A DNA stretch of 64,000 bases from Chloroflexota bacterium (GTDB lineage Bacteria; Chloroflexota; Anaerolineae; B4-G1; SLSP01). The stretch's first letter is position 1. Each line of letters starts with the position of its first letter. Location: positions 22,522 through 86,521 of the forward strand of contig DAIUDK010000001.1 of the NCBI GenBank assembly GCA_036845725.1, written 5' to 3'. This document shows, one piece after another, positions 460 to 53,597 of the stretch. The notes below the pieces were generated by a model, which worked only from the letters and a program-made list of their open reading frames with translations, ran no database searches and was not told the DNA's origin. A program made the translations under genes and the position numbers.

Positions 460-905
460 AGCTCCTATCGATACCGGAAAAACTATTCAAAGCCTTAATG
501 GCGCACAGCTACTACCTGATCGGCATCGTCCACCGCTACATCGGCAACTCGCGCGGCGTGCGTTGGGAGTACGAAGCCGCTATCGACGCCTTCACCCGCG
601 CGCTGGAATGGAAGCCCGATTTCGCGCAAATCTACCTGGATCGCGGCATCCTCTATTGGCGCGAAATCGATCACCCGCGCAAGGCCATCCACGACCTGAC
701 CACGGCAATGAACCTCGACCCGCGCCTGGTTGAGGCGCAGTTCAACCGCGCCATCGCGCACCAACAACTGCGCGAATACGCCGAAGCCATCGCCGATTTC
801 CAGGCTTACCTGGCCGTCGGCGAACATCCTTACTGGCGGGAACATGCCGAATCGATGATACGGGAGTTAAGCGAATGGGTGCCGAACGCAGAAGTCGATC
901 GATAA
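456..905 (+). CDS. Tetratricopeptide (TPR) repeat protein
   Basis: 149 aa with repeated 34-residue A/Y/L-rich helical pairs (AIDAFTRALEWKPDFAQIYLDRGILYW..., AIHDLTTAMNLDPRLVEAQFNRAIAH..., AIADFQAYLAV). Translationally coupled to the upstream GT4 gene. Confidence 0.7.
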   Translation: MKLLSIPEKLFKALMAHSYYLIGIVHRYIGNSRGVRWEYEAAIDAFTRALEWKPDFAQIYLDRGILYWREIDHPRKAIHDLTTAMNLDPRLVEAQFNRAIAHQQLREYAEAIADFQAYLAVGEHPYWREHAESMIRELSEWVPNAEVDR

Positions 906-2050
906 ATATCGCTGGCGTTGTCCTGGTGTGCGGCCTCTTGGGGCTGCTCGCCGCCTGCACGTCGACAAGGGTGCCGCCGCCCGCCCCCACGCCGCTTTCC
1001 CCGCCCCAGGTCACGTTCGACACGGCCCCGGATACGGTATGCCAGGCCGCGACACAAATCCGCTTCACCCCGGAGGCACTCGATGTTTGGCCCATCACGG
1101 TGAAGGCGCAGTGGATGCTCAGCCGTGAAAGCGAGAGCGCCGTCCTCAGCCAGGGCGAATGGCAGCCCGGCATGGGCGAGTTGCTCATCGCCTTTCCCAA
1201 AGGCGAAGCGCTGCCGCCAGGGCGCTACACGTTGGCGCTGCACGCGGACGGTGTCGCCTTAGGCGCACACACGTTCACCATCGCCGAAGACACCGCTGCC
1301 ATTACGTCAATGGAGCTGGCACTCACGCCCTCCGGCCCGACGTTGACCCGGCTGCCAGATGGCACGCAGCACTTCTACCTGCGCTTCACCTACCAGGGTG
1401 CATGCCCCGGCGCGCCGTACTGGATCGCCATCCGGCAAGAGAACGCAATCATCTGCACCCATAACGCCACCTTGCTCCAGGCAGAGGGCACAGAGAGTGT
1501 GGCCTGTTACCGCAAAAACGGCGCGCCGTTAGAAGACGGCGATTACCACTCCGAACTTACGCTGATGGGACGCACGGAACACACCTTCGCCTTTGCGGTT
1601 GGCGAGCCCCCTGTCCCCGATCCGACCGCCACGGCGACTCCCGCGCCGACCGCCACGCCTGAACCGCTGCCCTCGCTCACCTGCGCGCCGCTCTTCGCCG
1701 CCGCCGGACTGACGCCCGCAGGCGAGCCGTTCCTGCCCCAAGATCGCTTCGAATGGTATTCACAGGTCATCTATGTGGGGACGCAGTGCGCGGGACTTTC
1801 GGCCGGTACAACGTGGGAGAGCGCGTGGTACCGCAATGGCGTCAACGTACGTGCAGCCAGCGGCGTGTGGAATGAAACGGGCAATACAGGGGTTATCTGG
1901 GACAGCATCACCGGCATTCCGGGCGCGCCGTTCCTGCTGCCCGGCGAGTACACCGTCACCCTGACCCTGGACAACACGCGCCCGCTCACCGCCACCTTCC
2001 GCCTGATTGCCTACATCAAACCCGAACCGGAGGCAACGACGGGACCGTGA
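875..2050 (+). CDS. Hypothetical lipoprotein (secreted; Pro/Thr-rich linker)
   Basis: N-terminal lipoprotein-type signal (...VVLVCGLLGLLAACTS). Contains a PT-rich linker (PVPDPTATATPAPTATPEPLP). A GGGAG motif lies 7 nt 5' of the ATG. No recognisable catalytic motif. Confidence 0.55.
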   Translation: MGAERRSRSINIAGVVLVCGLLGLLAACTSTRVPPPAPTPLSPPQVTFDTAPDTVCQAATQIRFTPEALDVWPITVKAQWMLSRESESAVLSQGEWQPGMGELLIAFPKGEALPPGRYTLALHADGVALGAHTFTIAEDTAAITSMELALTPSGPTLTRLPDGTQHFYLRFTYQGACPGAPYWIAIRQENAIICTHNATLLQAEGTESVACYRKNGAPLEDGDYHSELTLMGRTEHTFAFAVGEPPVPDPTATATPAPTATPEPLPSLTCAPLFAAAGLTPAGEPFLPQDRFEWYSQVIYVGTQCAGLSAGTTWESAWYRNGVNVRAASGVWNETGNTGVIWDSITGIPGAPFLLPGEYTVTLTLDNTRPLTATFRLIAYIKPEPEATTGP

Positions 2051-2120: not shown

Positions 2121-2173
2121 ACCAAACCACGAAGCTGTCGGGGTCTCCCTGGTGTTTTCGTGTTTTGGTGGTT
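2121..2173. repeat. Related hairpin element (ACCAAACCACGAA ... TTCGTGTTTTGGTGG)
   Basis: Imperfect 14-bp stem sharing the CCACGAA/TTCGTGG core. Lies between the lipoprotein gene and the cytidylate-kinase-like gene. May serve as a terminator (T-rich 3' arm). Confidence 0.35.
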
Positions 2174-2195
2174 TACCTACATAAGGAGAATGACC

Positions 2196-2936
2196 ATGAG
2201 CATCATAATCACCGTCTCAAGGCAATTAGGCAGCCGTGGCAGTTACATTGCGACGGCCGTCGCCAAAAAACTCAACCTGCGCTATATCGACCGGGAAATC
2301 CTCAACCGCGCCGCAGAAATGGCCGGTTTCCCCGATGAATCCATGGTTGAAGAATTGGAAAAGCGCGAGCGCGTCCCCGGATTTTTAGAGCGCATCATCG
2401 ACTCGATGAATACCATGCCCGCCATCCCCACTATCGCCAGCGCCACGTTACGTGAGGGCTATGCTTACGACGAGCAGGTCGCCGCGCTGATCCTGCAAGA
2501 TAACCTGAGCCGCGACGAGGCACTCCACCATCTCACCGAGCAGCAGCGCCGCGTCGAGGCCGGTGCGTCCTACGGGGAACTCATCCGGCGGGTCATCCAG
2601 GAGTATGCCCAAACAGGGGGCGTCATTATCGCGGGACGAGGCGGGCAGGTGGTGCTAAAGGATTTCGCCAACGCGCTGCACGTGCGCATCCACGCGCCAG
2701 AAGACCTGCGCATCCTGCGTCTCACCGAGCGCCTGGGGTTGGATCAGAAAGAGGCCGAACGGCAAATCCACCAGGCCGACAAAGAACGCGTGCGCTACAT
2801 GAAACACTTCTACGACGCCAGATGGGACGATCCCGATCTCTACCATCTGACCATCAACACAGGTAAAATCGCGGCAGATCTGGCGACGCAAATCATCTGC
2901 GACACGGCGCAACGCCTCGCCCGGCCGATACCGTAA
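2196..2936 (+). CDS. Cytidylate kinase-like family protein (PF13189-type P-loop fold, predicted)
   Basis: MSIIITVSRQLGSRGSYIATAVAKKLNLRYIDREIL... matches the degenerate P-loop N-terminus of the cytidylate_kin2 family. SD AAGGAG lies 6 nt upstream of the ATG at 2196; the ATG at 2190 is too close to the SD. Confidence 0.6.
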   Translation: MSIIITVSRQLGSRGSYIATAVAKKLNLRYIDREILNRAAEMAGFPDESMVEELEKRERVPGFLERIIDSMNTMPAIPTIASATLREGYAYDEQVAALILQDNLSRDEALHHLTEQQRRVEAGASYGELIRRVIQEYAQTGGVIIAGRGGQVVLKDFANALHVRIHAPEDLRILRLTERLGLDQKEAERQIHQADKERVRYMKHFYDARWDDPDLYHLTINTGKIAADLATQIICDTAQRLARPIP

Positions 2937-2951
2937 AACACACTACCCCCA

Positions 2952-2990
2952 GCGAAGGTGCAGGCGAACCCTCGGTTCGCCCACCTTCGC
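2952..2990. terminator. Nested GC-rich stem-loop between convergent genes (no U-tract)
   Basis: gcgaaggtg-ca-ggcgaacc-ctc-ggttcgcc-caccttcgc gives 9 + 8 bp of perfect nested stems. Confidence 0.5.
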
Positions 2991-3005
2991 AAGGGCAGAA
3001 TCAAA

Positions 3006-3668
3006 TCAATATCCGGTCAGCAGGCCGCCTTCGGTTGAATCGGTGAAGACGGCGCCCAACAGGCGCACGTGGACCCGCTCCAGCAGTTCTTTGGCCTGGG
3101 CAATGCGGTCGCGGCGTGTGTGTCCGGCACGCACGACCAGCAGCAGGCCATCCGTCCGCGCCGCCAGCACCGAAGCATCCACCGCGACCGTGACCGGCGG
3201 CGCATCGAACACCACCACGTCGGCGCGCGCCTTCAGATGCGCCAGCAATTGCTCCATCTTCTGCGCGCCGAGGATGTCGGCGGGATTGGGCGGCAGCGCG
3301 CCGCTCGGCAGCAGTTGCAAACCCGGCACGTCAGTCTCCACAAGCGCCAATGCCTCTTCCCCATCGTGACTCACCATGTAGCCTGTCAACCCCGGTTCCT
3401 GAGGCGCGTCAAAGCAGGTGTGCAGGCTGGGACGGCGCAGGTCGGCGTCCACCAAAATCACCCGCTGCCCGGATTGCGCCATAACAACCGCCAGGTTCAC
3501 CGCCACCTGTGACTTGCCATCGTCGGGGGACGGTGATGAGACTACCAGCGTCTCTAAAGGTTTGTCGAGGCTGGTAAACGTCAAATTCATCCGCAGAGCA
3601 CGGTAAGCTTCCGCCGCCGGCGAGCGCGGCTCAGCCAGGGTCACTACACTTGCTTTATCCATCGTCAC
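3006..3668 (-). CDS. BY-kinase-like P-loop ATPase (CapB/CpsD/YwqD family), polysaccharide co-polymerase partner
   Basis: Walker A is SSPSPDDGKS and Walker A' is VILVDADLRRP; a Walker B-like VVVFDAPP is present. RBS AAAGGAG lies 6 nt upstream. Sits immediately downstream of a Wzz/CapA-like gene, the classic capA-capB order. The C-terminus ...LLTGY has a single Tyr only. Confidence 0.8.
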   Translation of the reverse strand: MTMDKASVVTLAEPRSPAAEAYRALRMNLTFTSLDKPLETLVVSSPSPDDGKSQVAVNLAVVMAQSGQRVILVDADLRRPSLHTCFDAPQEPGLTGYMVSHDGEEALALVETDVPGLQLLPSGALPPNPADILGAQKMEQLLAHLKARADVVVFDAPPVTVAVDASVLAARTDGLLLVVRAGHTRRDRIAQAKELLERVHVRLLGAVFTDSTEGGLLTGY

Positions 3669-3794: not shown

Positions 3795-4448
3795 CTACTG
3801 TGCCGGCGGGATCACGCCGAGGACGGTCACGCCGGTCTCGCGCTCCAAGTCTTGCGGCAGATGCACAATCCCGGCTTCCAGCCATTCGAGCACGAACACG
3901 ATGACCACGCCGATGACGAGGCCAAAAATCCCCCCCGCCGCCACGTTGATCATCGTTTTGGGCCGCAACTGCCGGTAAGAGGCCGGATCGATGGCTTTGG
4001 CAAATACACGGTCCTCCTTGTTCTGAAGTGCGTTTTGCTCGTTGCGCCATTCCTGGAACAACTGTGCCCAGGTGTTGGCGATATTGTTGGCCTGCTCGCC
4101 GTCGTAGTCATCCACGTCGATCTTGATCACCATGCGAGCATCGTCGACGGCGAAGGTCACATCGCCCTTTAAATCTTTAGCGGTGCGCATCAAGGTCCGT
4201 CGGTCGATGACCTCCTGCGCATACTGCTCCGACCACATTGTCGCTGAGAAGTTATTCAGCAACAACTTGGCCGATTGCGCCAAGCCAAAGTCAGGCCGCG
4301 CGAGCTGGATTGAAACCTCAATACTGGAACGGTAGACCGGCGTCTGCACTTTACTGAAGACAAAGGCGCTCGCTGCAGCCACAACCGCCGCCAGCAGGAT
4401 GATCCATCCGCGGTAGCGAAGGATACGCACGTAGTCTTGAATTTTCAC
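3795..4448 (-). CDS. Wzz/CapA-like polysaccharide chain-length determinant (membrane modulator of the BY-kinase)
   Basis: GTG start at 4448 preceded by AGGAGTGAGCGA. Has an N-terminal TM segment (WIILLAAVVAAASAFVF), a periplasmic domain and a C-terminal TM segment (GGIFGLVIGVVIVFVLEWL). This is PCP2b/Wzz topology. The ORF-track extension upstream to 4691 is probably not translated. Confidence 0.7.
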   Translation of the reverse strand: MKIQDYVRILRYRGWIILLAAVVAAASAFVFSKVQTPVYRSSIEVSIQLARPDFGLAQSAKLLLNNFSATMWSEQYAQEVIDRRTLMRTAKDLKGDVTFAVDDARMVIKIDVDDYDGEQANNIANTWAQLFQEWRNEQNALQNKEDRVFAKAIDPASYRQLRPKTMINVAAGGIFGLVIGVVIVFVLEWLEAGIVHLPQDLERETGVTVLGVIPPAQ

Positions 4449-4519: not shown

Positions 4520-4828
4520 TCAAGAACTCTGACGACCGCGCAGTCGCGCGCGCACTTCCCGGCAATGTGGACAATCCACATCCGTGTACGGTCGCCCGCA
4601 TGTCTGGCAAACACGGGTTTGCATTGGACGACTCTCCTGCATCGGCAGTAAAATCATCGTCACATCTTCGTTTTCGTGACGCGACATCCACTCTTCCACG
4701 AGGATGTTACCTACCAGCCACCGCCCGCTGTCTGGATCGCGGCTCACGACGCCTTGCATAAACCGACCCTCCAGCGCATACGCCGCGTTGGTCAAATCCC
4801 GAATGCTTGCTTTACGATATGCTGTCAT
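4520..4828 (-). CDS. Small zinc-ribbon protein (CxxC...CxxC), function unknown
   Basis: 103 aa beginning at the internal ATG at 4828 (MTAYRK...) with RBS GGGAGG upstream. The C-terminus is ...VCQTCGRPYTDVDCPHCREV. Lies between the GT-C-like membrane protein gene and the Wzz gene on the same strand. Confidence 0.45.
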   Translation of the reverse strand: MTAYRKASIRDLTNAAYALEGRFMQGVVSRDPDSGRWLVGNILVEEWMSRHENEDVTMILLPMQESRPMQTRVCQTCGRPYTDVDCPHCREVRARLRGRQSS

Positions 4829-4952: not shown

Positions 4953-6728
4953 TTAGCGAGCACGCCACAGGATCATCTGCTCGGATGCAGGCATGGTTGG
5001 CGTCTGGCGGAAGAGATACCAGCGCGCCAGATCCTTGCATGCCAGCGGGAGTATAGATTGGCAGGCTGGAATGCGCGCAGTCCCACGGGTCAACGCGGTG
5101 AAAGCCATCCCTTCCCACGTCTGTACTGCTGTGTCAGGCGGGATCGCGTCAGGCGCAGCCACCACCGCCCCGGTGACATCCGCCGGCCAGAATTCGGCGA
5201 CGCGCAGGCGCGCAAAATCGCGCAGCGCCCAGCGCATCACCGCCGCCGTCGCCGCATCCCGCGCCACCACCGTGACCGGGAAGGCATCCCGCCGCTGCCC
5301 GCTCTGCACCGCCATCCGGTCTAGCATAGTGCGTAGCGCACGCAAGTCCGGCGAGACCGCTGCCGGCACTGCCGGTTCTGCGATAGAATCGGGACGCACG
5401 AACGCCAGTCCCCAGGCAAAACCCGCCTGTGTCACCAATAGGGCCAGCGTCAGCCCCAACATCGCGCCGCGCCACACCAGATGCAAGGGCATCTTCAAGG
5501 AGAACAACAGCGCGATCAGGGCTTGTAACGCCAGCAAGGTCACGCTACCGAGAAGCAAAACCAGGTTGACGTTATCGAATGCGCCTCCGAGGGCTGAGGT
5601 TCCAGTTCCATTTGCATGCCACGCCAATGCTAACCCCACCGGCTGCCAGAAGATAAAGCCCACCAGCCCGTGTAATGCCGTCCACTTTAGAACCGGACCG
5701 GCGGTGGCGCGGTTGGAGAGCGGCCATAGTAGCGCCTGCTGCACGCCGTACCCGGCGAACAATGTCAAGGGCAAAACGACCACCACCAAAGCCGAAGGTG
5801 TCGCGCCGGGACGCAGGCTCACCAGCAGCAGCCCGAAGACGCCCCACAGTGCCAACGCCAGGGGCAGAGAAGCCGTTTTCCTCACAGTGTAGGTGCGCAA
5901 CAACATCACAACCAACCCGAGCAGCACCAGCAGCAGCGTAACCGGCTCGTAGAGGAATAGAAGGACGACCGGCGGAAGCCCGGCGCGAGGCGCGCGCCAA
6001 GAGGTCAACCACGCCGCCAGTCCATCGGCGACACCGCTCCAGCCATTCCAACGCAGTCCCAAAGCAATTGTGATTAGCAGCGCGCTCAACAGTCCCCAGA
6101 GAGCAGGTCTGATCCACGCTCGCAAAGACATACCGTCGCGCAAGGAAACAGTCGGCGAGCTGAAAATCCAGCGGTAAATCACCCACGCCAGCGCCCCGGC
6201 GAGCAATCCGTCGTAGAATACGGAGCCGCTCGTCAACCCAATCGCCAGCCCGGCAACGACGAGCGCGGAGGAGCATCCTGCAGGCCACCCCTCCGCATCG
6301 CGCGCCAGCAGCGCCGTGAGCAGCAGCCCCGCGCCGAGCAAACCCAGGCTCGCGCCATCCACGCGCCGGGTCGCGAAGAGCGCCAATGGCGAGCAAAGCA
6401 GCAGTCCGGCCGCAACCAATGCGCCAACCTCGCCCAGACGTTTTCGCCAGAACCAGGGCAATCCCACCAGCGCCACGCCCGCCAGCGCGGGCAGCAGACG
6501 CGCCATCCCATCCCCGCCGCCGAAGAGCAGGAATAGCAATCCGTTGCCCACCAGCAGCAGCGGGCTTTCCACCCTACTGACCCACTCCGCGCCGCGCGCC
6601 GCATCCAAAGAGGCCAGCGCCGCCGTTGCCTCATCCGGTGCCAGCAGAACGCTGTTCAATGCCACCAGGCGTAACAACAGCGCCAAGACAATCATCGTTA
6701 CCCAAGCCCAACGCGCATATCGTTCCAT
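4953..6728 (-). CDS. Large polytopic membrane protein, GT-C-like (PMT/ArnT-type putative glycosyltransferase; COG4745-like)
   Basis: At least 13 predicted TM helices. The first extracytoplasmic loop carries a D-E motif (LLAPDEATAAL), typical of GT-C enzymes. Start ATG at 6728 with GAGGAAG upstream. An alternative start is the ATG at 6803, coupled to the upstream gene's stop. Confidence 0.5.
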   Translation of the reverse strand: MERYARWAWVTMIVLALLLRLVALNSVLLAPDEATAALASLDAARGAEWVSRVESPLLLVGNGLLFLLFGGGDGMARLLPALAGVALVGLPWFWRKRLGEVGALVAAGLLLCSPLALFATRRVDGASLGLLGAGLLLTALLARDAEGWPAGCSSALVVAGLAIGLTSGSVFYDGLLAGALAWVIYRWIFSSPTVSLRDGMSLRAWIRPALWGLLSALLITIALGLRWNGWSGVADGLAAWLTSWRAPRAGLPPVVLLFLYEPVTLLLVLLGLVVMLLRTYTVRKTASLPLALALWGVFGLLLVSLRPGATPSALVVVVLPLTLFAGYGVQQALLWPLSNRATAGPVLKWTALHGLVGFIFWQPVGLALAWHANGTGTSALGGAFDNVNLVLLLGSVTLLALQALIALLFSLKMPLHLVWRGAMLGLTLALLVTQAGFAWGLAFVRPDSIAEPAVPAAVSPDLRALRTMLDRMAVQSGQRRDAFPVTVVARDAATAAVMRWALRDFARLRVAEFWPADVTGAVVAAPDAIPPDTAVQTWEGMAFTALTRGTARIPACQSILPLACKDLARWYLFRQTPTMPASEQMILWRAR

Positions 6729-6804
6729 AGCTTCCTCAGTGGTTGTTACTCGTTGCTCAATACTGGTTACTGGGTGCTGGGATAATTCAGCTTTCCCCAC
6801 CATT

Positions 6805-7947
6805 CTATACCTGTCTACCGTCTGCCTCTTCCCCCGCCGTGCGGATATCCGCCTCTTGCGCCTCGATGCTTTCAACGAGTTTGAACTGGACAAGCGCCCG
6901 TGTGAGGTTGTGGCACGCGCGCTTTATCTTGTAGTAAACATTGCCTTCCAAATAGTCGGTGAAGAAGCGCAACGCCTGTTCCAGCGCGAGAAGGCGCACC
7001 GCGGCGTACAGGTATGTATAATCATCCACAGTATAGAACCCGTGCACGAGCGGCAAGTAGCCTTGCAAAATCGCCCGGCACAAGTCCATGTCGAAATATA
7101 CAGCGTCGATGTCCTCCGTCTCCTCGCCCAACGGATTACATCCGGAGCGCAGGCAATCGCCGATGTCGTATTGGACAAGCCCCGGCTTGATCGTGTCCAG
7201 GTCGATAAGGCCCACGGCCTGCCCGGTGACGTCATCAATCATCACGTTATCCACTTTGGGATCGCCGTGGGTCAGGCGCAGACGCAGCCTGCCCCGCGCC
7301 TGTGCGTCTTCCAACACGGGGATGATGTCCCGCCGCGCCGCGACAAAGCGCAGGCCGTATTCCACCTCTGGCGACCGGGCGAAGTCACCGCGCTCCACCA
7401 CCGCATCGTGGTACGCCAGATAGCGCGACGTGACATGATAGCCCGCGAGCGTGTCGTACAACCGTCCGGCGTCCAGATCGCTGATAAGGCTGTGGAAACG
7501 TCCCAGCGCATAGCCGACCTCGTGAGCATGGTATGCGTCCCGTATTTTGGGATACGTTCGCGCGCCCTCGATGAAGGTAAGCGCGCGCCAGAATCCGCCC
7601 TCCGTATCGAGCGCGTAATCGCGCCCATCCTGGGCTGAGACGATCTGCGGCGTCTCCCAACGACGTCCTGCCTTCGCCGTCTGCGGCAGCTCACCTTCCA
7701 CCACCATCCGTGCCGCCACATGCTCGCCGTACACGCGGATGTTGGACATAATCCATTCAGGTTGTTTGAACACCCGCCGGTTGATTTGCTGCAAGACGAA
7801 CCGCCGCCCCGATGCCGTTGTCACCAGATACGTGTCGTTGATGTTGCCCGCGCCGTATTCGCGGACGTCCGCAAGGGCGTCGGCGGGCAGGATGAAGTGG
7901 GCAGCCAGGGTAGAGATGTTTTCTTTGTTCGCCGTATCCGTTATCAT
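6805..7947 (-). CDS. Phosphotransferase-family kinase (APH/ChoK-like fold)
   Basis: Catalytic-loop motif LTHGDPKVDNVMIDD (HGD-x4-N) and downstream IDLDT (DxD) match the aminoglycoside phosphotransferase / sugar-kinase fold. The start is uncertain: ATG at 7947, or TTG at 8040. Confidence 0.65.
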   Translation of the reverse strand: MITDTANKENISTLAAHFILPADALADVREYGAGNINDTYLVTTASGRRFVLQQINRRVFKQPEWIMSNIRVYGEHVAARMVVEGELPQTAKAGRRWETPQIVSAQDGRDYALDTEGGFWRALTFIEGARTYPKIRDAYHAHEVGYALGRFHSLISDLDAGRLYDTLAGYHVTSRYLAYHDAVVERGDFARSPEVEYGLRFVAARRDIIPVLEDAQARGRLRLRLTHGDPKVDNVMIDDVTGQAVGLIDLDTIKPGLVQYDIGDCLRSGCNPLGEETEDIDAVYFDMDLCRAILQGYLPLVHGFYTVDDYTYLYAAVRLLALEQALRFFTDYLEGNVYYKIKRACHNLTRALVQFKLVESIEAQEADIRTAGEEADGRQV

Positions 7948-8095
7948 CCGTTCGGTTTTCGCACTCGCACGGGATTGTGATTGCACGCCGGTAATTCTAT
8001 CCCGAAAGGCAGGCTTTGCAACATTTGATTCGTAATCCAATAGAACTGGCCTGTGTGAGAATAAAAGTTATAATTCTTTCGGAGGATAAACTCAA

Positions 8096-8494: not shown

Positions 8495-11032
8495 TCACTG
8501 CCCAACGCTGTAAATCACCACATCTCCACCCTCGTACACCACTGGGAACATCGCGGTAAACTTATCCAGCCCTTCGGCGGGATAGCGCTCGCGTTCGACT
8601 TGGCCGATGTAAATGTAGGCGACGTTGTAGCGCGCTAGAATCGCCTGTGCTTCGGTGGGGTCGAGTGTGGTGAATAGCGTTTCCAGCTCGACCTCGCGAC
8701 GCCCAGGCTCATCGTAGTTGCCGCGCCATTGCCTTTGGTGGCCGCCCCAACCCAACATGGTCGGCAAGCCGGTTAACGCAGAGACGCGCCCCTCGTAGAT
8801 GTAGGCGCGATGTTGGTCGCCCGGCGCTTCGACGATGACCGGCGCGCCCTCCACGTTGGCATTGAGCCACCGAATCGCGGCATAGTCGGTCGGTCGAGAC
8901 GTCGCCAGCCACGCTGCGCCGTCCAGGGTCCACGGTGTGCCGTGTTCGTGTGCCCGCGCCGGAACGGCCAACACGGTGTAGAGCAAGCCCACAGCGATCA
9001 ACAGGCAGGAAAGTCCCACCGCCAGCGCCCGCCAGGGAAAGCACTCTCCGTTCCGGGCTTCATGTGGTTCCAACCAGCGCGCAATCTGCCACGCACCCGC
9101 CAGGCTCCACAAGATCCACGCCTGAAAGTAGAACTTAAAAATTGTGTTCATCCGCGTCATAAACACGTCTTTGAGGTACACGTACTCCGGCGCCAACGTG
9201 AGCAGCAGGCCGATGAGGACGAGGAGGAGGGGGAATTGGGAGTAGGGAGTAGAGAATAGGGAGTAAGGGGGAGGTGGAGATTTTGGATTGTGGATTGTGG
9301 ATTGTGGATCTGGGATTGTGGATTCAGGGCCAGGGGCTACAGACTCAGAACTGACCGCTGACGGCTGATCGCTGACCGCTGATCGCTTCAACAACGCCAA
9401 AACCACCGCCGCGACGCCAAGCGCGAGCGCGAGTCCTACCCAAGGACGCAGCCAGCGCGCAACGATGCCTTCGACGACCATCTCTGGTGCGATGGATAAT
9501 CCCTGGACCGGTTCGCCGCGCCAGACGCTCTGCAGATAAGGATACGCAGCGCCCGCGCCTACCAACAGGCCAAGCAACGCAATGGCGAGCACCAGCCCCA
9601 CGCCGCCGATCAACACCCACTGCCACGGCACACCCGCGTCACGCGCTGCGCCGGCGATCACACCGAGTAGCGGGATCAGCAGCGGGGCAAACATCACCAC
9701 GAACTGCGGCCAGTGCGTAGCGTTGAAGAGATTGGGCAGCACGCCCCCAGCTTGCGAGCGCAGCGCGTACCAGAACGGGAAATACAAAAACACGCTCAAC
9801 ACACCCAGGATAACCCCTTCAGGCAGCGTCCTCCACAGCGCATCAAAAAACCGCGTCCACATATGCCGGAAGGTGGACGCCCCGCCCGCCGAGCGCGCAT
9901 ATCGCGCCAACACGATCCCGCCCACCATCAACACCCAATAGATTGGAAAATCCCACGTGTTGAGAAAACCGAGCGCGCCCAAAGTGAGCGCGTAGCCTGC
10001 CAGCGGTGCAAGCCGCGCCCCCCAACCCTTGCTAAATTCGCCCTCCCGCAACGTCCGGTACAGGTTGAGCGTCAGCGCAACCGCCAGCAGCACAAAAGGC
10101 AGCGCCAAAACGTGCGGGTGCATATCGCCCAGGGTGAAACTGAACGCGGGGAACTCGTCGATGATCTCGATGCGGTCGCCCCAGGGTGCATAGTCGGTGA
10201 GGACGCGCGATCCTTGCCACCACCAGAAGAAGCGCGTGGGAATCCAGGAGAACGGCGGCTGTGGCGTGGTGTTGATATTGCGGATATCCAGCCATGTCCA
10301 AAATTCGGCGGACAGCAATCCACGCGCGTGCAGCACCTCGAGCAAACCGGCAGCGTTGCCGGTCAGCAAGAGCAGCAAAGGCGCGAACAACGCACGCAAC
10401 ACGCCACGTCGTTCCAGCAGATCGTAGACGATGCCGTAAGCGCCCACTGCCGCCAATGCGAACCACCCCGCGCACCCCAGGTTGAAGGCCACCGTCGCCG
10501 GGAGCGCCGACAACCGCGTGAGCATCCCCAACAGGAAATAGCCCAGATAATAATACGAAATTGCGTAGCCGGAAAGCCAGGGATCGTGCGGTGGAACCTG
10601 CGGCGCGCGCAAAACCGCATTGAGGAACGCGATCTCCATCCACTTTTCGCCGCCCGCCGTCTCCAACTGCGGCTGAGAGGCGCGCACCACCGTCCACAAC
10701 AGCAACGCGCCGAAGAAGAGCGCCTCTGTGGTGAGGATGAACACCCGCTGCTCCTGCAACCAGGGACGGATCTCCACCCGGTATCGCCGTAGTGCCCATA
10801 GGCCCACGGCGAATACAAGGCCCGCCGCGACGAGGATGGCGGACGTCGTGTTCTCCCACAAGTGTAGGATACCACCCCACCAAACCACCACGCCGGTCAG
10901 CAACAAGCCCAGCGCCTTTGCCGCCGCATAGCCCCGCGAGCGCAAACGCCGCAACCACACAAACGCTAGTGGCAATCCCGCCAGCGCGAAAACTTGCATC
11001 GTCAGATACCACGTGAGAAACGGTCCAAGCAT
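8495..11032 (-). CDS. DUF2298-family large membrane protein (Chlor_Arch_YYY / TIGR03662-like; predicted GT-C glycosyltransferase)
   Basis: About 845 aa and more than 14 TM helices. Hallmark segment FFWWWQGSRVLTDY...IDEFPAFSFTLGDMHPHVLALPF; C-terminal soluble domain ...TLFTTLDPTEAQAILARYNVAYIYIG. The ATG at 11032 has GGAG 7 nt upstream; the TTG at 11056 has no RBS. Confidence 0.7.
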   Translation of the reverse strand: MLGPFLTWYLTMQVFALAGLPLAFVWLRRLRSRGYAAAKALGLLLTGVVVWWGGILHLWENTTSAILVAAGLVFAVGLWALRRYRVEIRPWLQEQRVFILTTEALFFGALLLWTVVRASQPQLETAGGEKWMEIAFLNAVLRAPQVPPHDPWLSGYAISYYYLGYFLLGMLTRLSALPATVAFNLGCAGWFALAAVGAYGIVYDLLERRGVLRALFAPLLLLLTGNAAGLLEVLHARGLLSAEFWTWLDIRNINTTPQPPFSWIPTRFFWWWQGSRVLTDYAPWGDRIEIIDEFPAFSFTLGDMHPHVLALPFVLLAVALTLNLYRTLREGEFSKGWGARLAPLAGYALTLGALGFLNTWDFPIYWVLMVGGIVLARYARSAGGASTFRHMWTRFFDALWRTLPEGVILGVLSVFLYFPFWYALRSQAGGVLPNLFNATHWPQFVVMFAPLLIPLLGVIAGAARDAGVPWQWVLIGGVGLVLAIALLGLLVGAGAAYPYLQSVWRGEPVQGLSIAPEMVVEGIVARWLRPWVGLALALGVAAVVLALLKRSAVSDQPSAVSSESVAPGPESTIPDPQSTIHNPKSPPPPYSLFSTPYSQFPLLLVLIGLLLTLAPEYVYLKDVFMTRMNTIFKFYFQAWILWSLAGAWQIARWLEPHEARNGECFPWRALAVGLSCLLIAVGLLYTVLAVPARAHEHGTPWTLDGAAWLATSRPTDYAAIRWLNANVEGAPVIVEAPGDQHRAYIYEGRVSALTGLPTMLGWGGHQRQWRGNYDEPGRREVELETLFTTLDPTEAQAILARYNVAYIYIGQVERERYPAEGLDKFTAMFPVVYEGGDVVIYSVGQ

Positions 11033-11099
11033 AAAAACTCCAAAGAGAATGAGCAAATCAGTGAATCAGCAAGACCCCTTACTCCATACTCCTTACTTC

Positions 11100-18638: not shown

Positions 18639-20573
18639 TTATATAACACTTTGCTGATGATGGCTACCGTGCAAATCGACCGGCAACACACTTTGGTCAT
18701 GATGTACCTCTTCTTCCATCACAACAATGATCTCGGCCAGGTTTTCAATCGCCACCCGCTGTTTTCGATACAGGTCCGACTCACTTACCGCCAGCCGCAT
18801 CGCCACCTCACGGACTTTGTGCCCACGTAGAAACTTCATTTCAAGTATATTGTATAGCAGCCATTCCGGTGCTGTCAACTTGCGTTCGCCATCTGGACGC
18901 AGGCGCTCGATAGCGTCGGCCAACACCACCCGCAGCCCTTTGACGACATTCCCATCGTAATCGGCGGCGGCCTGTTTGACGACTTCCAGGTCCAGCAGTG
19001 GGTTTTCAGTGAGACGCGGTCCACCCCAGTAGTGCGCGAGTGCATCGTGGACCCACTGCGGCAGCTCCGGCGACCGGGTCAGCGTGAAACCGCCTACCGC
19101 CTCGCCCGTGTATCGCAGGATACTCCCACGACGCTGGATGTCCGTCAATTCCGAGAGCAGCGGTGAGAACGCGCCGAACACCACCTGCTGCAGTCGCCGG
19201 TCTTCCAGCGCGGCGCTGGCCTGCAGGAGCAGATCATCCAACAGCACTCCCAGCTCTACCGGCAGCGGCAAACGAATTTCGGGCGACCGCAATCCGATGA
19301 GACCAAGCATGTCATTCCCGCTCTTGTCGTAAATGACAAGCACCCAATAGCCGTCCCAAAAGATGAAGCGGTCCTGCTTATGCGCGAAGGCGACCTCCGC
19401 CAGCGGAATTTGGGCGATATCCTCCGGCGAGAGCGACCAGTTACAGCGGACGTCCCAGTGCAATTCGCCATTGTCCAACGTCGCTAGGAAGCCGCCACCG
19501 CTGTGGAGGATTTCGCAGACCGCAGCCAGAACGTTCTCCAAAAACTGTCGCAGATCGGCAGTGGTCAACAGGCGTTGGCTCAGTTCCTGCACCCGCACCA
19601 CCTCTTCGCGCCCCTCACGGTAGAGGAGCAAGTCGATCACAGGTTTGGCTAGTTCCACGCCCAACTGCATCACAATCACGGTTGCGGCACAGACGATCAA
19701 TGAGAGCGTGTACTGGCGCAGGCCCAGCACCGGCTCCAACGTCAAGCCGATGCCAAACATCACCAAGGCGAGGCTCGCCGTCAACGGGCCGCGCAGAAGA
19801 AAGCGCACCATCCGGTGCTTGATCACTCGATCGGGTGTCAGCGCACCGATGAAAGCAACACTGTAGGCCATCAACACCAGCATCGCCGCGACAGCGACGT
19901 TCCCCACAATCAATAGGAGCCAGAACAAGGCTCCGGGAAGACGCGTCGGCCAGCCAATCAACAGCAGATAAGGGAACACACCCATGGCCGGAGCGACAAA
20001 ACTGACGAGCAAGTACGCCATGCGGCGCCGCGCCGCGTGGGTATAGCAGCGCCCGCGCGCGACCAGCATTTCCCGTAATCCCCACAACGCCACACCGGCA
20101 AAAGCGAAGGCGAAGGGATAAAAGAGCGGGCCAGGCAGCAAATGCTGCGCTCCGACTAAGATGGTGCTGGGCAGGAACATGCCATCGCGAACGACCAAAT
20201 CGGTGAAAAGGGCCAGCAGCGCCACAACAGCACTGATCAGGAAACCTGCCCAGCGCAACCAGCCGGGGAAGCGATCCTCCATAACCGAAAGACGGATCGC
20301 GCGAACAAACTCGATGTAGAACGGCGGTGTAAAGGCGATGCCCAGCCACTGCAACCGGAGCAGCGTCCCCGTCGGTACCAGAACCGCGTCACTGGGCGGG
20401 AGCAGATCAACCAGATAAACAATAATCACGCATCCCAGCAACCCCCCAAAAGTGCTCGAGACACGGCTCTGACGATTATAAAAGAAAAGATAGAGCGCAA
20501 GCGCGAAAGCGGTAGCCGCTACACCCGCCATCAACACATCGTTCGCTTTAATAAGGAAATGCAGCCAGTCCAT
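18639..20573 (-). CDS. Membrane sensor/regulator: N-terminal 7TM (HisKA_7TM-like) domain, central GAF-like region, C-terminal sigma-70 region-4-like HTH
   Basis: N-terminus MDWLHFLIKANDVLMAGVAATAFALALYLF... with about seven TM helices. The C-terminus ...TAPEWLLYNILEMKFLRGHKVREVAMRLAVSESDLYRKQRVAIENL resembles an HTH. Confidence 0.5.
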   Translation of the reverse strand: MDWLHFLIKANDVLMAGVAATAFALALYLFFYNRQSRVSSTFGGLLGCVIIVYLVDLLPPSDAVLVPTGTLLRLQWLGIAFTPPFYIEFVRAIRLSVMEDRFPGWLRWAGFLISAVVALLALFTDLVVRDGMFLPSTILVGAQHLLPGPLFYPFAFAFAGVALWGLREMLVARGRCYTHAARRRMAYLLVSFVAPAMGVFPYLLLIGWPTRLPGALFWLLLIVGNVAVAAMLVLMAYSVAFIGALTPDRVIKHRMVRFLLRGPLTASLALVMFGIGLTLEPVLGLRQYTLSLIVCAATVIVMQLGVELAKPVIDLLLYREGREEVVRVQELSQRLLTTADLRQFLENVLAAVCEILHSGGGFLATLDNGELHWDVRCNWSLSPEDIAQIPLAEVAFAHKQDRFIFWDGYWVLVIYDKSGNDMLGLIGLRSPEIRLPLPVELGVLLDDLLLQASAALEDRRLQQVVFGAFSPLLSELTDIQRRGSILRYTGEAVGGFTLTRSPELPQWVHDALAHYWGGPRLTENPLLDLEVVKQAAADYDGNVVKGLRVVLADAIERLRPDGERKLTAPEWLLYNILEMKFLRGHKVREVAMRLAVSESDLYRKQRVAIENLAEIIVVMEEEVHHDQSVLPVDLHGSHHQQSVI

Positions 20574-21340: not shown

Positions 21341-21372
21341 CGTCTACGGTGTGACGCGTCTACGGTGTGACG
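21341..21372. repeat. Perfect 16-bp tandem duplication (cgtctacggtgtgacg x2) spanning the stop codon of the 21360 membrane-protein gene
   Basis: Two identical adjacent copies. The second copy overlaps the last four codons and the stop. Confidence 0.6.
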
Positions 21373-22154
21373 ATGTTGAGCGGGATGATACACATAAGCG
21401 TGTTGCCGTAGATGTCCACGACGACCAACTGGAAGCGGTACGGTCCGCCCGGAGGATAACGGCTGGGGTCCGAGACGTCCCACGTCCCTAAAATTCCATT
21501 CGTCACCGGCGCGTCGTATTGCGAGACAAAGTTGGGCGTGTCCGATCCCGGGAACTGCACCTCGAACTTGTAATACGAAAAGGCGTTGACGTTGGCCGTG
21601 CCCACCACCTGCACTTCCCCCGCCACGTTGCTCCCAGCGGTAGGCAATGTCAACTGCGCTTCGGCCGACGGGCAATCGGGCTGATAGACGTCAGGTGGAA
21701 CCGGCGTGTCCGTGGGTACTACAACGTCCGTCGGCGTCGGCTGCGTCGCGGGGATCACCACCGTGGTGAGCATCTCCGTGGCGGTCAGGGTCGAACCGGG
21801 CATTCCGACACCCGGGGTTTCAACACCCGGCGTCCCCAGTGGTCTGAGCGGTGTAGGTGTGAGGGTGAACAGCCCCACCCCCAACGTAGGCACCGGCGTC
21901 GACGTCACCGGCAGAGCAGGCAGCATGTAAGCGCGCAGCAGGAACACAGCCGAGCCAAGCCCGAGGAACAATACCGCCGTCATCCAGGCGCGGATCATCC
22001 GCTGCTGGTAAACCTCGCGCTCCAACGAGAACTGCGCGACGTCACGTCGGCGTTTGGTGGAGATGGCGGTGACGACGTAGCCAAGCGCACCCAACAGGCA
22101 GATCACGCCAATCCACAGGGCCTGCCGCCCTAGCCAGGAAAGTACAATCGTCAT
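21360..22154 (-). CDS. Membrane-anchored hypothetical protein with a Pro/Thr-rich linker and C-terminal beta domain
   Basis: Two N-terminal TM segments, a PT-rich spacer and a C-terminal domain ...FSYYKFEVQFPGSDTPNF... The start overlaps the PNP stop (ATGA). Confidence 0.5.
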   Translation of the reverse strand: MTIVLSWLGRQALWIGVICLLGALGYVVTAISTKRRRDVAQFSLEREVYQQRMIRAWMTAVLFLGLGSAVFLLRAYMLPALPVTSTPVPTLGVGLFTLTPTPLRPLGTPGVETPGVGMPGSTLTATEMLTTVVIPATQPTPTDVVVPTDTPVPPDVYQPDCPSAEAQLTLPTAGSNVAGEVQVVGTANVNAFSYYKFEVQFPGSDTPNFVSQYDAPVTNGILGTWDVSDPSRYPPGGPYRFQLVVVDIYGNTLMCIIPLNIVTP

Positions 22155-25137: not shown

Positions 25138-25364
25138 GATTCCCCCTCCGGCGTGCCGGAGACCCGTTCGACAAAACGCTTAACGCGCGCCTCAAAGCGG
25201 CTGCGAGGCACCATCACGTAGCGGCCACACGTCAAACACTCCATGCCAACATCCACGCCGACCCGCATAATGCGCCAGGTGTAGCCGCCACACGGATGAC
25301 TTTTGCGCAGTTCAACCACGTCACCCACATTCAAAGACAAAGGCGTTTTACCCGCCATAACCAT
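25134..25364 (-). CDS. DUF951-family small protein
   Basis: ...VGDVVELRKSHPCGGYTWRIMRVGVDVGMECLTCGRYVMVPRSRFEARVKR matches the conserved DUF951 core. Confidence 0.65.
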   Translation of the reverse strand: MVMAGKTPLSLNVGDVVELRKSHPCGGYTWRIMRVGVDVGMECLTCGRYVMVPRSRFEARVKRFVERVSGTPEGES

Positions 25365-25382
25365 CTCGCCTTTGAAACCACT

Positions 25383-26009
25383 TCACAATGTCACATGCCG
25401 TTGCTGGACACGGCAGTGTTCGGCGGAGATAATGTGCAAAACCTGATCTACCGTCTCATCCAGCTCGGACTCGTGGTTGATGACCACGTAATCGAACTCG
25501 CCGACGCGTCGCATTTCCTCACGCGCCAGTCCCATACGGTAATGCAACTGCTCTTCGGACTCGGTCCGACGGCGTTGGAGGCGCTCGTACAGCTCATCTT
25601 CCGAAGCCGCGGTCAAAAAAACGAGAATTGCCTCCGGAGCCATCCGCTTGACCGTCGCCGCACCCTGCACATCCAGACGCATAATCACATCCTTGCCGCT
25701 GTTCAACGCGTCACGCACCTGCTGCTTGGGAATGCCCTTGTACTGCCCGTAAACCATCGCGTGTTCCAGGAGTTCATCCTGCCTGATCATCTCCTGGAAC
25801 TCAGCCTCGGAAACGAAGAAATAATCCACGCCGTGCACCTCGTCGGGACGCGGCGGGCGCGACGTCGCCGTGACTACAAAATGGAACGAAGATTGGCGGC
25901 GCTGCATTTGCATAACGACGCTGTCTTTCCCCACCCCTGAAGGCCCGGAAATGACGATCAACAGCGGGTAATGCGGGCGTTGGTACAAATCGGTCGCGTT
26001 TTCCCCCAT
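25383..26009 (-). CDS. gmk: Guanylate kinase
   Basis: P-loop SGPSGVGKDS, plus a TTR...E...Y and a D/EY...VN motif. RBS GGAGGGAG. Confidence 0.9.
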   Translation of the reverse strand: MGENATDLYQRPHYPLLIVISGPSGVGKDSVVMQMQRRQSSFHFVVTATSRPPRPDEVHGVDYFFVSEAEFQEMIRQDELLEHAMVYGQYKGIPKQQVRDALNSGKDVIMRLDVQGAATVKRMAPEAILVFLTAASEDELYERLQRRRTESEEQLHYRMGLAREEMRRVGEFDYVVINHESELDETVDQVLHIISAEHCRVQQRHVTL

Positions 26010-39977: not shown

Positions 39978-41162
39978 TCAACGCTGACAGGCATAGCGAT
40001 ACGCAGCTTCGGCGACGGGCGCGAGTGCCTCCCAGGCGAAGCGCTCACGCGCATCGCGGGTGGCATATTCGCTAAGAGATTGGCGCAGTGAGGCATCACG
40101 CAACAGCGACGTCACGGCCTCGATGAACGCCGCATCATCTCCGGGGGGAACGAGCCAGCCCGATTCGCCATGGCGGATGCTCTCCGCCACCTGGCCCACC
40201 GCGTCGGCGACGACCGGAACGCCCGCCGCCAGCAAATCCAGCAGCTTGACCGGGCATTTGGTGCGGTTGAGCAGCGTGTCGTCGAAGGGATAGAGCGCCA
40301 CGTCGGCCTGGACGAAGTGCGCGGGCAGGTCTTCCGCCGGAACCAACCCCGCGTAGACCAAATCGGCGTCCAGTGCGGGCGATGCCCCCTCTGTCACCTG
40401 CCATCCCGCCGCGCGGGCCAATGCCAGCAGTGTCTCCTCCTCCGCGAAGAAGCCCTTCCCCACCACCCACAGCCGCGCGTCGGGAATGCGCGCCCACACA
40501 CCCTCGACGATGCGCCATAGCCGTTCTACGTTGTACTCGAAGAAGCGCGTGTAGAGCAAAAGTGTCGGACGTCGCCCACCCTTGGCGGCGCGTGAAACCG
40601 CCGGGCGCGGGATGCAGCCGTTCGGCAGATAGAAGACGCGCTCCGGCGGGCCGCCCATCGCCCAGACGAGCGTTTGCAGAGCGCGACTGGCGACGGTGAC
40701 CGCAGCCGCGCGCGTCAGTCCCCAGCGCTCCTGCCAGGCGAAGAAGCGCTTGAGCAATACCGGATAGGGGTTGAGGTCGTTCCAGCCGCCGTAGCCCTCC
40801 CAATCGTCGGTATCCACCACCACCGGGAAACGTCGTCGCAGCGCCAGATGCGCCAGTCCCGCGTAGGCTTTGGGCTTAAAAGTGTGGATCATGTCCGGTT
40901 TGAGTGCCACGGCGCGGCGGACCAACGCCGCCGCCAGCCGCCAGTGGAACCACCCCGGCACACCCGCCGGGAGTGCGACGTTTTCGATTTGCACGCCGCC
41001 TTCGTCCCAGGATTTTCCCGCATCCTCGGGATTCTGCCACGGGGGGAGCAGCAGCGTCACGGTATGCCCACGCGCGACGAGTGCCTGCGCCAGCGGCAAG
41101 GCTCGCACACTCATCGTGCCGCGCGGGCGCAGACCAAACGGGCCGATCATCACGATGCGCAC
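39978..41162 (-). CDS. Glycosyltransferase family 4
   Basis: N-terminal GT-B half (MRIVMIGPFGLRPRG..., HTFKPKAY). C-terminal E-x7-E region (...PFDDTLLNRTKCPVKLLDLLAAGVPVVADAVGQVAESIRHGESGWLV). Confidence 0.8.
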   Translation of the reverse strand: MRIVMIGPFGLRPRGTMSVRALPLAQALVARGHTVTLLLPPWQNPEDAGKSWDEGGVQIENVALPAGVPGWFHWRLAAALVRRAVALKPDMIHTFKPKAYAGLAHLALRRRFPVVVDTDDWEGYGGWNDLNPYPVLLKRFFAWQERWGLTRAAAVTVASRALQTLVWAMGGPPERVFYLPNGCIPRPAVSRAAKGGRRPTLLLYTRFFEYNVERLWRIVEGVWARIPDARLWVVGKGFFAEEETLLALARAAGWQVTEGASPALDADLVYAGLVPAEDLPAHFVQADVALYPFDDTLLNRTKCPVKLLDLLAAGVPVVADAVGQVAESIRHGESGWLVPPGDDAAFIEAVTSLLRDASLRQSLSEYATRDARERFAWEALAPVAEAAYRYACQR

Positions 41163-41707: not shown

Positions 41708-41730
41708 GGTGCGAGAGCCTCCTTACAAAA

Positions 41731-41795
41731 AACCGCGAATCTCGCCAATCTACGAGAATCCCCTAAAAATTAGCGAAGATTCGCGTGATTTGCGG
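41731..41795. repeat. Related CGCGAATCT / AGATTCGCG inverted repeat overlapping the 3' end of rnhB
   Basis: cgcgaatct (41734-42) and agattcgcg (41778-86). It shares the gaagattcgcg core with the 34694 element. Confidence 0.3.
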
Positions 41796-49942: not shown

Positions 49943-50066
49943 AGTTTCACCCTCAAAAAGTTTCATGTCAACGCTCAAGGCAGGTCACAATCCACGGTCT
50001 CCGCAGCCCCCCCCTTTAATCCCCCCCTCTAAGGGGAAACTAAAGGGGGGAATCAGTCCTTGCACA

Positions 50067-53492: not shown

Positions 53493-53562
53493 GGGATCCT
53501 CCAGAAAAGTGATGGGTAATGGGTAATGAGTTGGATAATGGGTCTTGAGTTTTGGGTTTTGC

Positions 53563-53597
53563 TGTGCGCCGCCTCCTTGTGGTGGAGGCGGCGCACA
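53563..53597 (-). terminator. Perfect 14-bp GC hairpin in the 118-bp spacer between the two giant-protein genes (no U-tract)
   Basis: tgtgcgccgcctcc-ttgtggt-ggaggcggcgcaca. Confidence 0.35.

Follow-up and report, generated by a model that had tools for sequence, protein, structure and literature searches.

One of the defining features of bacterial tyrosine kinases (BY-kinases) is a C-terminal cluster of several tyrosines, 5 to 7 in the definition quoted in PMC8457666. In CapB of Staphylococcus aureus, the phosphorylated residues are Y221, Y222, Y224, and Y225, with 35% of the first phosphate on Y221 and 19% on Y222 (54% together), and the subunits form an octameric ring, with inter-subunit contacts at E23, R26, R29, R81, and E133, in which each subunit extends its tail to its neighbor's active site (PMC2422856). 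Under the current model of how BY-kinase rings control polysaccharide co-polymerases (PCPs), several phosphotyrosines per subunit are required for the ring to open, and in Wzc, where no single tyrosine is sufficient, opening takes about four of them per subunit. Scaffolding BY pseudokinases, namely, EcpK, HfsB, and GumC, are already documented. Here, we describe a protein encoded on the minus strand at positions 3006..3668 of a 64-kb stretch of a Chloroflexota genome (the whole stretch, 64,000 nucleotides, is hereafter called the window), a BY-kinase homologue whose lone C-terminal tyrosine is its very last residue. Within its clade, termed class I, this tyrosine and the ring interface are maintained whereas the ATP-binding loop is not, and we lean toward the view that the window protein is mainly a non-catalytic ring scaffold for a membrane protein that controls how long a sugar polymer grows, the conserved function of class I being independent of ATP-driven tyrosine phosphorylation.

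The gene and its principal features are as follows.

3006..3668, minus strand: BY-kinase-fold protein (class I, "one-tyrosine tail"); open reading frame (ORF) of 220 aa from GTG 3668, stop TGA at 3006..3008
3591..3611, minus strand: O-motif EX2RX2R (E20-A-Y-R23-A-L-R26), equivalent to the CapB ring contacts E23/R26/R29
3510..3539, minus strand: Walker A region SSPSPDDGKS (aa 44-53), with a canonical reading in this copy and positions that are hypervariable across the family
3429..3461, minus strand: Walker A' VILVDADLRRP (aa 70-80), fitting hhhhDxDxR; D74, D76, and R78 correspond to CapB D77, D79, and R81
3195..3218, minus strand: Walker B VVVFDAPP (aa 151-158), matching hhhhDxxP; D155 corresponds to CapB D157
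3009..3041, minus strand: C-terminal tail D210-Y220 (DSTEGGLLTGY), disordered (predicted local distance difference test score, pLDDT, below 50 for aa 215-220)
3009..3011, minus strand: TAT codon of the terminal Tyr220, followed by TGA
2941..3001, no strand assigned: strong terminator-like hairpin directly after the stop, between convergent genes (-42.3 kcal/mol, z -5.9)

Residue numbers throughout refer to the 220-aa ORF read from GTG; the true start is probably ATG 3662 (AAGGAG-N5-ATG), which would give a 218-aa product matching the length of the closest homologues. The protein scores 161.4 bits against the BY autokinase profile TIGR01007 (cut-off, 108.05), covering profile positions 1-188 of 204 and leaving the profile's tail unmatched, and reaches 25 to 39 bits with the MinD, ParA, and BcsQ models, far under their cut-offs. 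In a sequence search of the PDB, S. aureus CapA/CapB chimeras came first (E 2.6e-38), and BceF, Etk, Wzc, and VpsO ranked next. The AlphaFold2 model (predicted template modelling score, pTM, 0.86) superimposes on CapAB with a template modelling (TM) score of 0.86 to 0.89 and root mean square deviations between 1.6 and 2.2 Å, and its top Foldseek matches are CapAB, BceF, Wzc, Etk, and VpsO. The window protein is a BY-kinase homologue, as the initial annotation had it, and has a BY-kinase fold.

That annotation also remarked on the missing multi-tyrosine cluster, which we confirm: the protein ends ...VFTDSTEGGLLTGY followed by TGA (C-terminal sequence ...AVFTDSTEGGLLTGY-stop, the GLLTGY end) and carries one Tyr within its final 20 residues, so that in place of the cluster characteristic of BY-kinases there is a lone tyrosine at the last position. 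To describe the family, we used a class I set of 127 sequences that are 60 to 90% identical, consisting of database homologues and orthologues from species-representative genomes grouped by similarity. The tail tyrosine is present in 126 of these 127 sequences and is the very last residue in 125; the ending is TGY-COOH in 110, and the tail extends 11 residues past the last strand in 117 and 10 to 12 residues in all of them; the short C-terminus is common to all orthologues. Among the best 120 database matches, 119 intact homologues (63 to 90% identity) have the same ending, mostly ...GLLTGY, and those members for which a source is named are Anaerolineae metagenome-assembled genomes (MAGs).

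The chance that a frameshift or assembly error had cut off a normal tyrosine-cluster tail is negligible. There is no tyrosine-coding frame downstream of the stop in any reading frame, the terminator-like hairpin (equaled by none of 200 shuffles) sits inside the 69-nt gap that separates the stop from the convergent gene, and termination at this Tyr recurs in 125 of 127 independent orthologues. Because of these three observations, we treat the stop codon and the short C-terminus as genuine; a frameshift or a longer true C-terminus is ruled out.

Nor does the tail appear to have simply lost its acceptors, as the initial annotation implied. In an ungapped alignment with CapB, window T209 falls on N211 and Tyr220 on position 222, and the first tail tyrosine of canonical relatives lies 8 to 13 residues past the same strand, the window's lying at 11. 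Since Tyr220 occupies CapB position 222 and falls within the range of canonical first tyrosines, the alignment identifies the tail as a tyrosine cluster reduced to its first position rather than as one ending before the cluster. We note separately that the sole class I sequence without the terminal Tyr (L021, 3110..3769, ending ...GLMAGN) is also the sole one in which D76 is changed, to N (LVDANLRDP), a single case that hints at functional coupling of the tyrosine and the DxD motif.

Walker motifs across three grades of relatives

Intact Walker A, A', and B motifs were part of the initial annotation, and in this copy they are indeed present: the Walker A pattern [A/G]xxxxxGK[S/T] is matched literally as S-SPSPD-D-GKS (Ser also occupies the first position in CapB), and Walker A' and B are in register with those of CapB. 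At the level of the family, the statement is true of Walker A' but fails for the other two. Residue 51, which precedes the Walker A lysine, is most often T (45 of the 127 class I sequences), M (33), L (18), N (8), H (7), or A (6), and is Gly only once, in the window copy itself. Lys52 is kept in 66 sequences and replaced mainly by D, E, or S in the others; Asp155 is kept in 66, with Gln in 55. The two residues covary, both being present in 65 sequences and neither in 60, with one sequence in each mixed state (Fisher p 4e-34, uncorrected for phylogeny). Positions 48-52 and 54 of the P-loop, with entropies exceeding 2 bits (mean over the protein, 0.99), are among the most variable in the protein. 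Even the closest relatives (87 to 90% identical) read AQS, AKS, TKS, or DKS at aa 51-53, and in a DNA alignment with the nearest orthologous loci, residue 51 is encoded by GGC in the window, by GCC in L004 (the locus of P0001), and by ACC in both L007 and L008. About half of the class I orthologues are without both the Walker A lysine and the Walker B aspartate, in the same gene order as the window (e.g., P0076, which has TDH / LQAPP). In the wider family, 144 of the 149 other listed representatives of 50%-identity clusters keep GK[ST], and most of them have at least 5 tail tyrosines.

As judged from these alignments, the P-loop is under no selection within class I, the intact Walker A is an exception of this copy rather than a family-conserved feature, and the family looks like a BY pseudokinase in the making. 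The loss is structured by subclade: when sequences are grouped by average-linkage clustering of distances that exclude the motif columns (a grouping that is not a true phylogeny), the window's subclade, Ia, keeps Lys52, Ser53, and Asp155 (approximately 65 sequences), and its sister, Ib, has D/E/S and Q instead. Read from one sequence, the motifs came out as "intact"; set beside the rest of the family, the motif turns out not to be under selection, which is a caution for motif scans. Profile-based naming has a similar difficulty: orthologues with neither Lys nor Asp (P0076, P0096, and P0062) score 140 to 148 bits with TIGR01007, above the cut-off of 108, so that this model does not separate active from inactive proteins. 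The public names of P0063, P0091, and P0099 are "CpsD/CapB family tyrosine-protein kinase" or "non-specific protein-tyrosine kinase," and calling the orthologues without Lys and Asp kinases is probably a systematic over-annotation.

These distributions bear on the suggestion, made in the initial annotation, that the protein is an ATPase-only regulator, in which ATP hydrolysis would drive the co-polymerase without tyrosine phosphorylation. The fold is related to that of the MinD/ParA ATPases, and the Walker A and B strings of the window copy are canonical. However, about half of the orthologues are without the Walker A lysine and Walker B aspartate, and 126 of 127 lack the P-loop glycine, so ATP turnover is not the conserved activity of class I and the family's conserved function cannot depend on it. 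Such a regulator would also leave the invariant, last-residue tyrosine unexplained, and the window protein does not match the deviant Walker A of MinD/ParA (KGGxxK[ST]), whose signature lysine is absent. We consider ATPase-only regulation highly improbable and the least supported account of what the protein does.

A genome scan combined with motif tabulation, with comparison of the best 80 genomic loci, distinguishes three grades of relatives, as follows.

(i) Canonical kinases, whose identity to the window protein does not exceed about 50%, have xEGK[ST]T, D155, Asn where CapB has N211, and 5 to 11 tail tyrosines.

(ii) Class II proteins of Anaerolineae (e.g., L012-L016, L018, and L025) are 53 to 60% identical to the window protein, and their partner proteins are 47 to 58% identical to the window's. 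Their tails have the same short length as the window's and end in ...LGGY or ...GGYYGA, most of them in GY-COOH. Walker A is mostly canonical (xEGKST; fully so in L016, ASKS in L025), Walker A' and B are canonical, D155 is always present, and Asn is often retained at the CapB N211 position. The kinase gene lies at approximately 10001..10650 in L012, L015, L016, L018, and L025, in a glycosyltransferase (GT)-rich setting unlike that of the window (RmlD, GT2, GT2, RNase HII, and GT4). From these motifs, class II proteins with a single terminal tyrosine are candidate one-site BY autokinases. In L017, L019, L025, and L046, the P-loop glycine is already E, S, or D.

(iii) Class I proteins have a decayed P-loop, and a gene for a zinc-ribbon protein (ZnRib) is always alongside. 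In the 50%-identity library, all class I proteins fall in one cluster, whose representative, P0114, is frameshifted (91% identical over aa 3-153 and out of frame thereafter); library searches consequently under-represent class I, and the library search supplied only the canonical baseline.

Because canonical motifs accompany a short tail in class II, reduction of the tyrosine cluster preceded decay of the ATP site. Among the best 80 loci, no assembly yielded a class I gene together with one of class II, an absence that is only suggestive (10 class I genomes, all of them MAGs).

The series also frames an alternative in which the window protein would be a normal, active BY-kinase whose acceptor is minimal: ring subunits would phosphorylate their neighbors' Tyr220, and one phosphate on each, removed by a phosphatase encoded elsewhere, would toggle the co-polymerase. 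The motifs of the window copy are intact, K52, S53, and D155 are conserved in subclade Ia, Tyr220 sits at the Y221/Y222 site of CapB that jointly takes 54% of the first phosphate, Bacillus subtilis EpsB functions with two tyrosines only, and class II proteins pair canonical GK[ST], DxD, and DxxP motifs with a lone terminal tyrosine. Against these stand the uniqueness of Gly51 among 127 sequences (AQS, AKS, TKS, and DKS in the nearest relatives), a P-loop as variable as surface loops, and orthologues in the same gene order that are without both Lys and Asp. The nucleotide contacts have gone as well: N211 and R212, which contact adenine in CapB, are T209 and D210 in the window (T in 120 and D in 123 of the 127 class I sequences), and the position of CapA F221, mutation of which cripples CapB, is Ala, Thr, or Val in class I partners (Ala in the window's), with the aromatic also missing from class II partners. 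In Wzc, moreover, a lone tyrosine is insufficient, and since ring opening takes about four phosphotyrosines per subunit, a one-tyrosine tail is ill suited as a charge-accumulation switch. No tyrosine phosphatase was found in the 64-kb window, either with Pfam over nearly all long non-overlapping ORFs or with six-frame pattern searches for C-x-G-N-x-C-R-[ST], HCx5R[ST], and the CpsB N-terminus. On this evidence, a working one-site kinase is unlikely, albeit a serious competitor.

Ring interface, Wzz-like partner, and proposed mechanism

What class I has kept differs from what it has lost. The residues that are invariant, or nearly so, are E20, R23, R26, D74, D76, R78, P80, D131, P157, P158, and Y220; the O-motif retains its E in 126, its first R in 126, and its second R in 125 of the 127 sequences, and in Walker A' D74, R78, and P80 are present in all 127 and D76 in 126. 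Equivalents of all five CapB ring-contact residues are conserved. Comparisons of the kinase-like gene with three orthologues give ratios of nonsynonymous to synonymous substitution (dN/dS) of 0.09 to 0.16, by which measure the gene is under strong purifying selection.

Directly upstream of the kinase-like gene is that of its presumptive membrane partner.

3795..4448, minus strand: Wzz/CapA-type PCP-2b partner, 217 aa; GTG start with a preceding AAGGAG; ends ...PQDLERETGVTVLGVIPPAQ

The 298-aa ORF at this position is overextended, the true extent being 217 aa. In the partner, two transmembrane helices are accompanied by about 130 aa of extracytoplasmic domain and by a cytoplasmic tail, and there is no kinase domain; it scores 26.7 bits with Pfam Wzz and 72 bits with TIGR01006, the latter under that model's cut-off. 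Its tail, QDLERETGVTVLGVIPPAQ, aligns with the CapA1 activator segment EDVEKELGLPVLGSIQKFN, and when its last 31 residues are prefixed to the kinase-like protein, the alignment with the CapAB chimera extends across the CapA activator segment. A Wzz-like gene lies upstream of the kinase-like gene at all class I and class II loci for which sequence on that side is available. The BY-kinase hallmark of an adjacent transmembrane activator/PCP is thus present, and the CapA/CapB-style split described in the initial annotation stands.

Together, these features suggest the following mechanism. The window protein, a member of the Anaerolineae class I clade, would be the cytoplasmic component of a polysaccharide co-polymerase split in the CapA/CapB (PCP-2b) manner. 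It would bind the Wzz-like partner at its C-terminal cytoplasmic tail, as that tail's homology to the activator segment of CapA suggests, and would form a CapB/Wzc-like ring through the EX2RX2R helix, which would touch R78 and D131 of the next subunit, in line with the conservation of every CapB ring contact. The Tyr-COOH of the fixed-length tail would then enter the neighbor's vestigial active site beside the Walker A' DxD and serve as a latch or pseudo-substrate in place of a multi-site phospho-switch, with the ATP-binding loop left free to drift across class I. By analogy with Wzc, in which a K540-D642 salt bridge stabilizes an open, nucleotide-free state with oligomer interfaces intact (PMC8457666), the Lys52-Asp155 pair of the window's subclade is probably kept as a salt bridge that holds an open, ring-competent state, and such a bridge would provide a structural reason for the joint retention or replacement of the two residues. 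The window copy itself, with its Gly-Lys-Ser, may have residual nucleotide binding or single-site autophosphorylation.

Several observations weigh against a mainly non-catalytic scaffold. All three Walker motifs of the window copy are canonical (GKS, DxDxR, and DxxP), and the retention of K52, S53, and D155 in subclade Ia (approximately 65 sequences) may mean residual nucleotide binding and not a salt bridge. The statistic for covariation is uncorrected for phylogeny, and the sequences without Lys belong largely to one clade. The invariant DxD would be equally required by catalysis, and the canonical motifs of class II, combined with the same lone terminal tyrosine, make a working one-site autokinase a plausible ancestor that might persist. 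Finally, coverage of this genome is confined to the 64-kb window (and relatives are MAGs), and genes for a phosphatase or an active kinase may lie outside it.

The invariance of Tyr220, of the ring interface, and of the DxD pocket even where a protein's own Walker A and B are gone is also what would be expected if the window protein were a substrate-only subunit, its Tyr220 receiving phosphate in trans from another, active BY-kinase or a different tyrosine kinase encoded elsewhere in the genome (for example, in mixed rings) and the pseudo-active protein reading the signal. Precedents exist in eukaryotic pseudokinases and in the proposed interplay of CapB1 and CapB2. Opposing this are the failure of tblastn to find a second BY-kinase paralogue within the 64-kb window, the absence of a class II paralogue from all 10 class I genomes among the best 80 loci, the nature of the neighboring APH-fold protein as a NahK-type sugar kinase, and the dispensability of same-cell active BY-kinases for EcpK. 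Phosphorylation in trans strikes us as improbable.

A stronger form of the scaffold reading is that class I is a natural "phosphorylation-free" BY-kinase ring, with a tyrosine and its free carboxylate permanently latched in the neighbor's DxD pocket; this we offer tentatively, as a possibility that falls short of being probable. ATP binding would then be dispensable, with Walker A and B decaying in real time across the clade, and assembly and disassembly of the co-polymerase would come under some other control, for which ZnRib is one candidate. The ring would serve a non-Wzy glycan pathway around the Agl23-like and DUF2298 proteins described below, in monoderm Anaerolineae. Were this so, docking of the substrate tyrosine, and not its phosphorylation, would be the conserved core of BY-kinase ring function. 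One lineage offers a graded series, from canonical kinases with many tyrosines, through class II with canonical motifs and 1 or 2 tyrosines, to subclade Ia without the P-loop glycine and subclade Ib without Lys and Asp in addition. The ring interface, the DxD, and one terminal tyrosine are constant along the series, which would make docking and assembly separable from catalysis.

Genomic neighborhood of the ZnRib-Wzz-kinase triad

The genes surrounding the pair are as follows.

4520..4828, minus strand: ZnRib, a zinc-ribbon protein of about 102 aa (CxTCGR...CPHCR...RLRG), third member of the ZnRib-Wzz-BY-kinase-like triad
4953..6893, minus strand: polytopic, Agl23-like (GT-C-like) membrane protein (TIGR03663, 70.8 bits, below cut-off); conserved neighbor
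6805..8040, minus strand: APH-fold kinase, homologue of N-acetylhexosamine 1-kinase (NahK; PDB 4ocj/4wh1, E about 5e-56, 4e-56 for 4ocj; Pfam APH); conserved neighbor
8495..11056, minus strand: large DUF2298/chlor_Arch_YYY membrane protein (Pfam, 375 bits; TIGR03662, 528 bits); frequent neighbor
2160..2936, plus strand: cytidylate-kinase-like gene (PF13189), convergent to the kinase-like gene
875..2050, plus strand: 391-aa protein with no Pfam match; convergent neighbor in all class I loci (36 to 75% identity)

Wherever a class I locus includes upstream sequence, ZnRib sits immediately upstream of the Wzz-like gene (seen in the window and in L001, L004, L008-L011, L021, L027, L028, L038, and L041); it does so in no class II or canonical locus. 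Its conserved pattern consists of an N-terminal M-x-A-Y-R-K-A-x-I-R and a C-terminal C-x-T-C-G-R...C-P-H/Y-C-R...R-L-R-G, and no relatives were found in Pfam, NCBIfam, or the PDB. ZnRib may be a regulator of the Wzz/kinase-like pair.

The downstream convergent genes encode the cytidylate-kinase-like protein, the 391-aa protein, a TPR protein, and a GT4 glycosyltransferase, and the gene order of the neighborhood is conserved in related contigs. The cytidylate-kinase-like gene occurs only in closer relatives (L004-L009) and is absent from L001, L002, L010, and L011, from which restriction we take it to be a recent insertion into the neighborhood.

Given the neighboring gene content and its conserved order, the locus is glycan related, and the placement beside GT-C-like membrane proteins (Agl23-like and DUF2298) in a Chloroflexota context, specifically Anaerolineae, agrees with the initial annotation. 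The combination of a NahK homologue with Agl23-like and DUF2298/chlor_Arch_YYY proteins points to a putative, uncharacterized N-acetylhexosamine (HexNAc)-based glycan pathway of Anaerolineae. A literature search on DUF2298 gave nothing informative, and no Wzx, Wzy, or priming transferase was present among the scanned ORFs of the window. We had considered the APH-fold neighbor as the enzyme that phosphorylates Tyr220 and rejected it as a leading idea, since a close NahK homologue is a sugar kinase, not a protein kinase.

Elsewhere in the window, positions 39978..42441 (minus strand) encode an RNase HII, a small AAA-like protein, and a GT4 glycosyltransferase in a row, with no Wzz/kinase pair after them; in L015 (6444..10648), a class II Wzz/kinase pair follows an RNase HII and a GT4 glycosyltransferase. 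At 50067..63984 (minus strand), there are three consecutive giant ORFs (1180, 1808, and 1595 aa) with CarboxypepD_reg, Ig-like, PKD, and BACON domains, the first of which also bears an M14 zinc carboxypeptidase domain, and at 47498..49978 there is an S8 subtilase with Ig-like and PKD domains. These giant ORFs and the subtilase resemble a cluster of genes for large proteins that are secreted or located at the surface. Long ORFs without a Pfam match are located at 18639..20573 (minus strand), 21360..22154 (minus strand), 25296..25940 (plus strand), and 875..2050 (plus strand; the 391-aa convergent neighbor).

Comparison with known co-polymerase systems

CapA/CapB of S. aureus (PDB 3bfv, 2ved, and 4jmp) is the best match to the window system in sequence and fold and has the same split gene arrangement, with EX2RX2R, DxDxR, R81, the E133 equivalent, and the Walker B DxxP all in register. 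By sequence, the window system descends from, and would work like, F-type CapA/CapB. Unlike CapB, which has four tyrosines (Y221, Y222, Y224, and Y225), the window protein has one and nothing after it; also unlike CapA/CapB, no CapC-type phosphatase is nearby, and the P-loop is not under selection in class I. In the literature that could be searched, no BY-kinase clade having one invariant terminal tyrosine was described.

Other split F-type systems have shorter clusters, with two acceptor tyrosines in EpsB of the B. subtilis EpsA/EpsB pair (Y225 and Y227) and three in CpsD of Streptococcus pneumoniae CpsC/CpsD, so a long tyrosine cluster is not obligatory. Phosphatases are encoded alongside both systems. 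EpsB and CpsD, unlike the window protein, are still multi-site proteins with canonical, conserved Walker motifs.

GumC of Xanthomonas campestris, a "pseudo-BY-kinase" (PMC9800525), resembles the window protein, by its description, in having a BY-kinase-like cytosolic domain without a tyrosine cluster, and is thought to regulate chain length without phosphorylation. It differs, again by description, in being a fused proteobacterial PCP for which no conserved terminal tyrosine is reported.

The arrangement of a stand-alone BY-kinase-like protein with a kinase-less PCP-2 partner is shared with EcpK/EpsV of Myxococcus xanthus and HfsB/HfsA of Caulobacter crescentus, as are the dispensability of catalytic residues across the family and the proposed scaffolding of the PCP via its cytoplasmic C-terminus. 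EcpK is without all three Walker motifs, alpha1, alpha2, beta1, alpha6, alpha7, beta4, beta5, and any C-terminal tyrosine, and has a basic helix at its end (PMC12004946). In contrast to EcpK and HfsB as published, class I retains the whole fold, Walker A', the O-motif, and the terminal tyrosine, with only Walker A and B decaying, and its setting is that of monoderm Anaerolineae, with no outer membrane polysaccharide export (OPX), Wzx, or Wzy gene nearby. The nucleotide-binding and catalytic residues whose absence marks EcpK/HfsB-type proteins are present in the window copy (GKS, DxD, and D155); about half of its orthologues are without Lys52 and Asp155, and 126 of 127 sequences are without the P-loop glycine. 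Judged by what it retains, the window protein is not an EcpK/HfsB-type pseudokinase in the strict sense but a variant that keeps the fold, the ring interface, and one terminal tyrosine.

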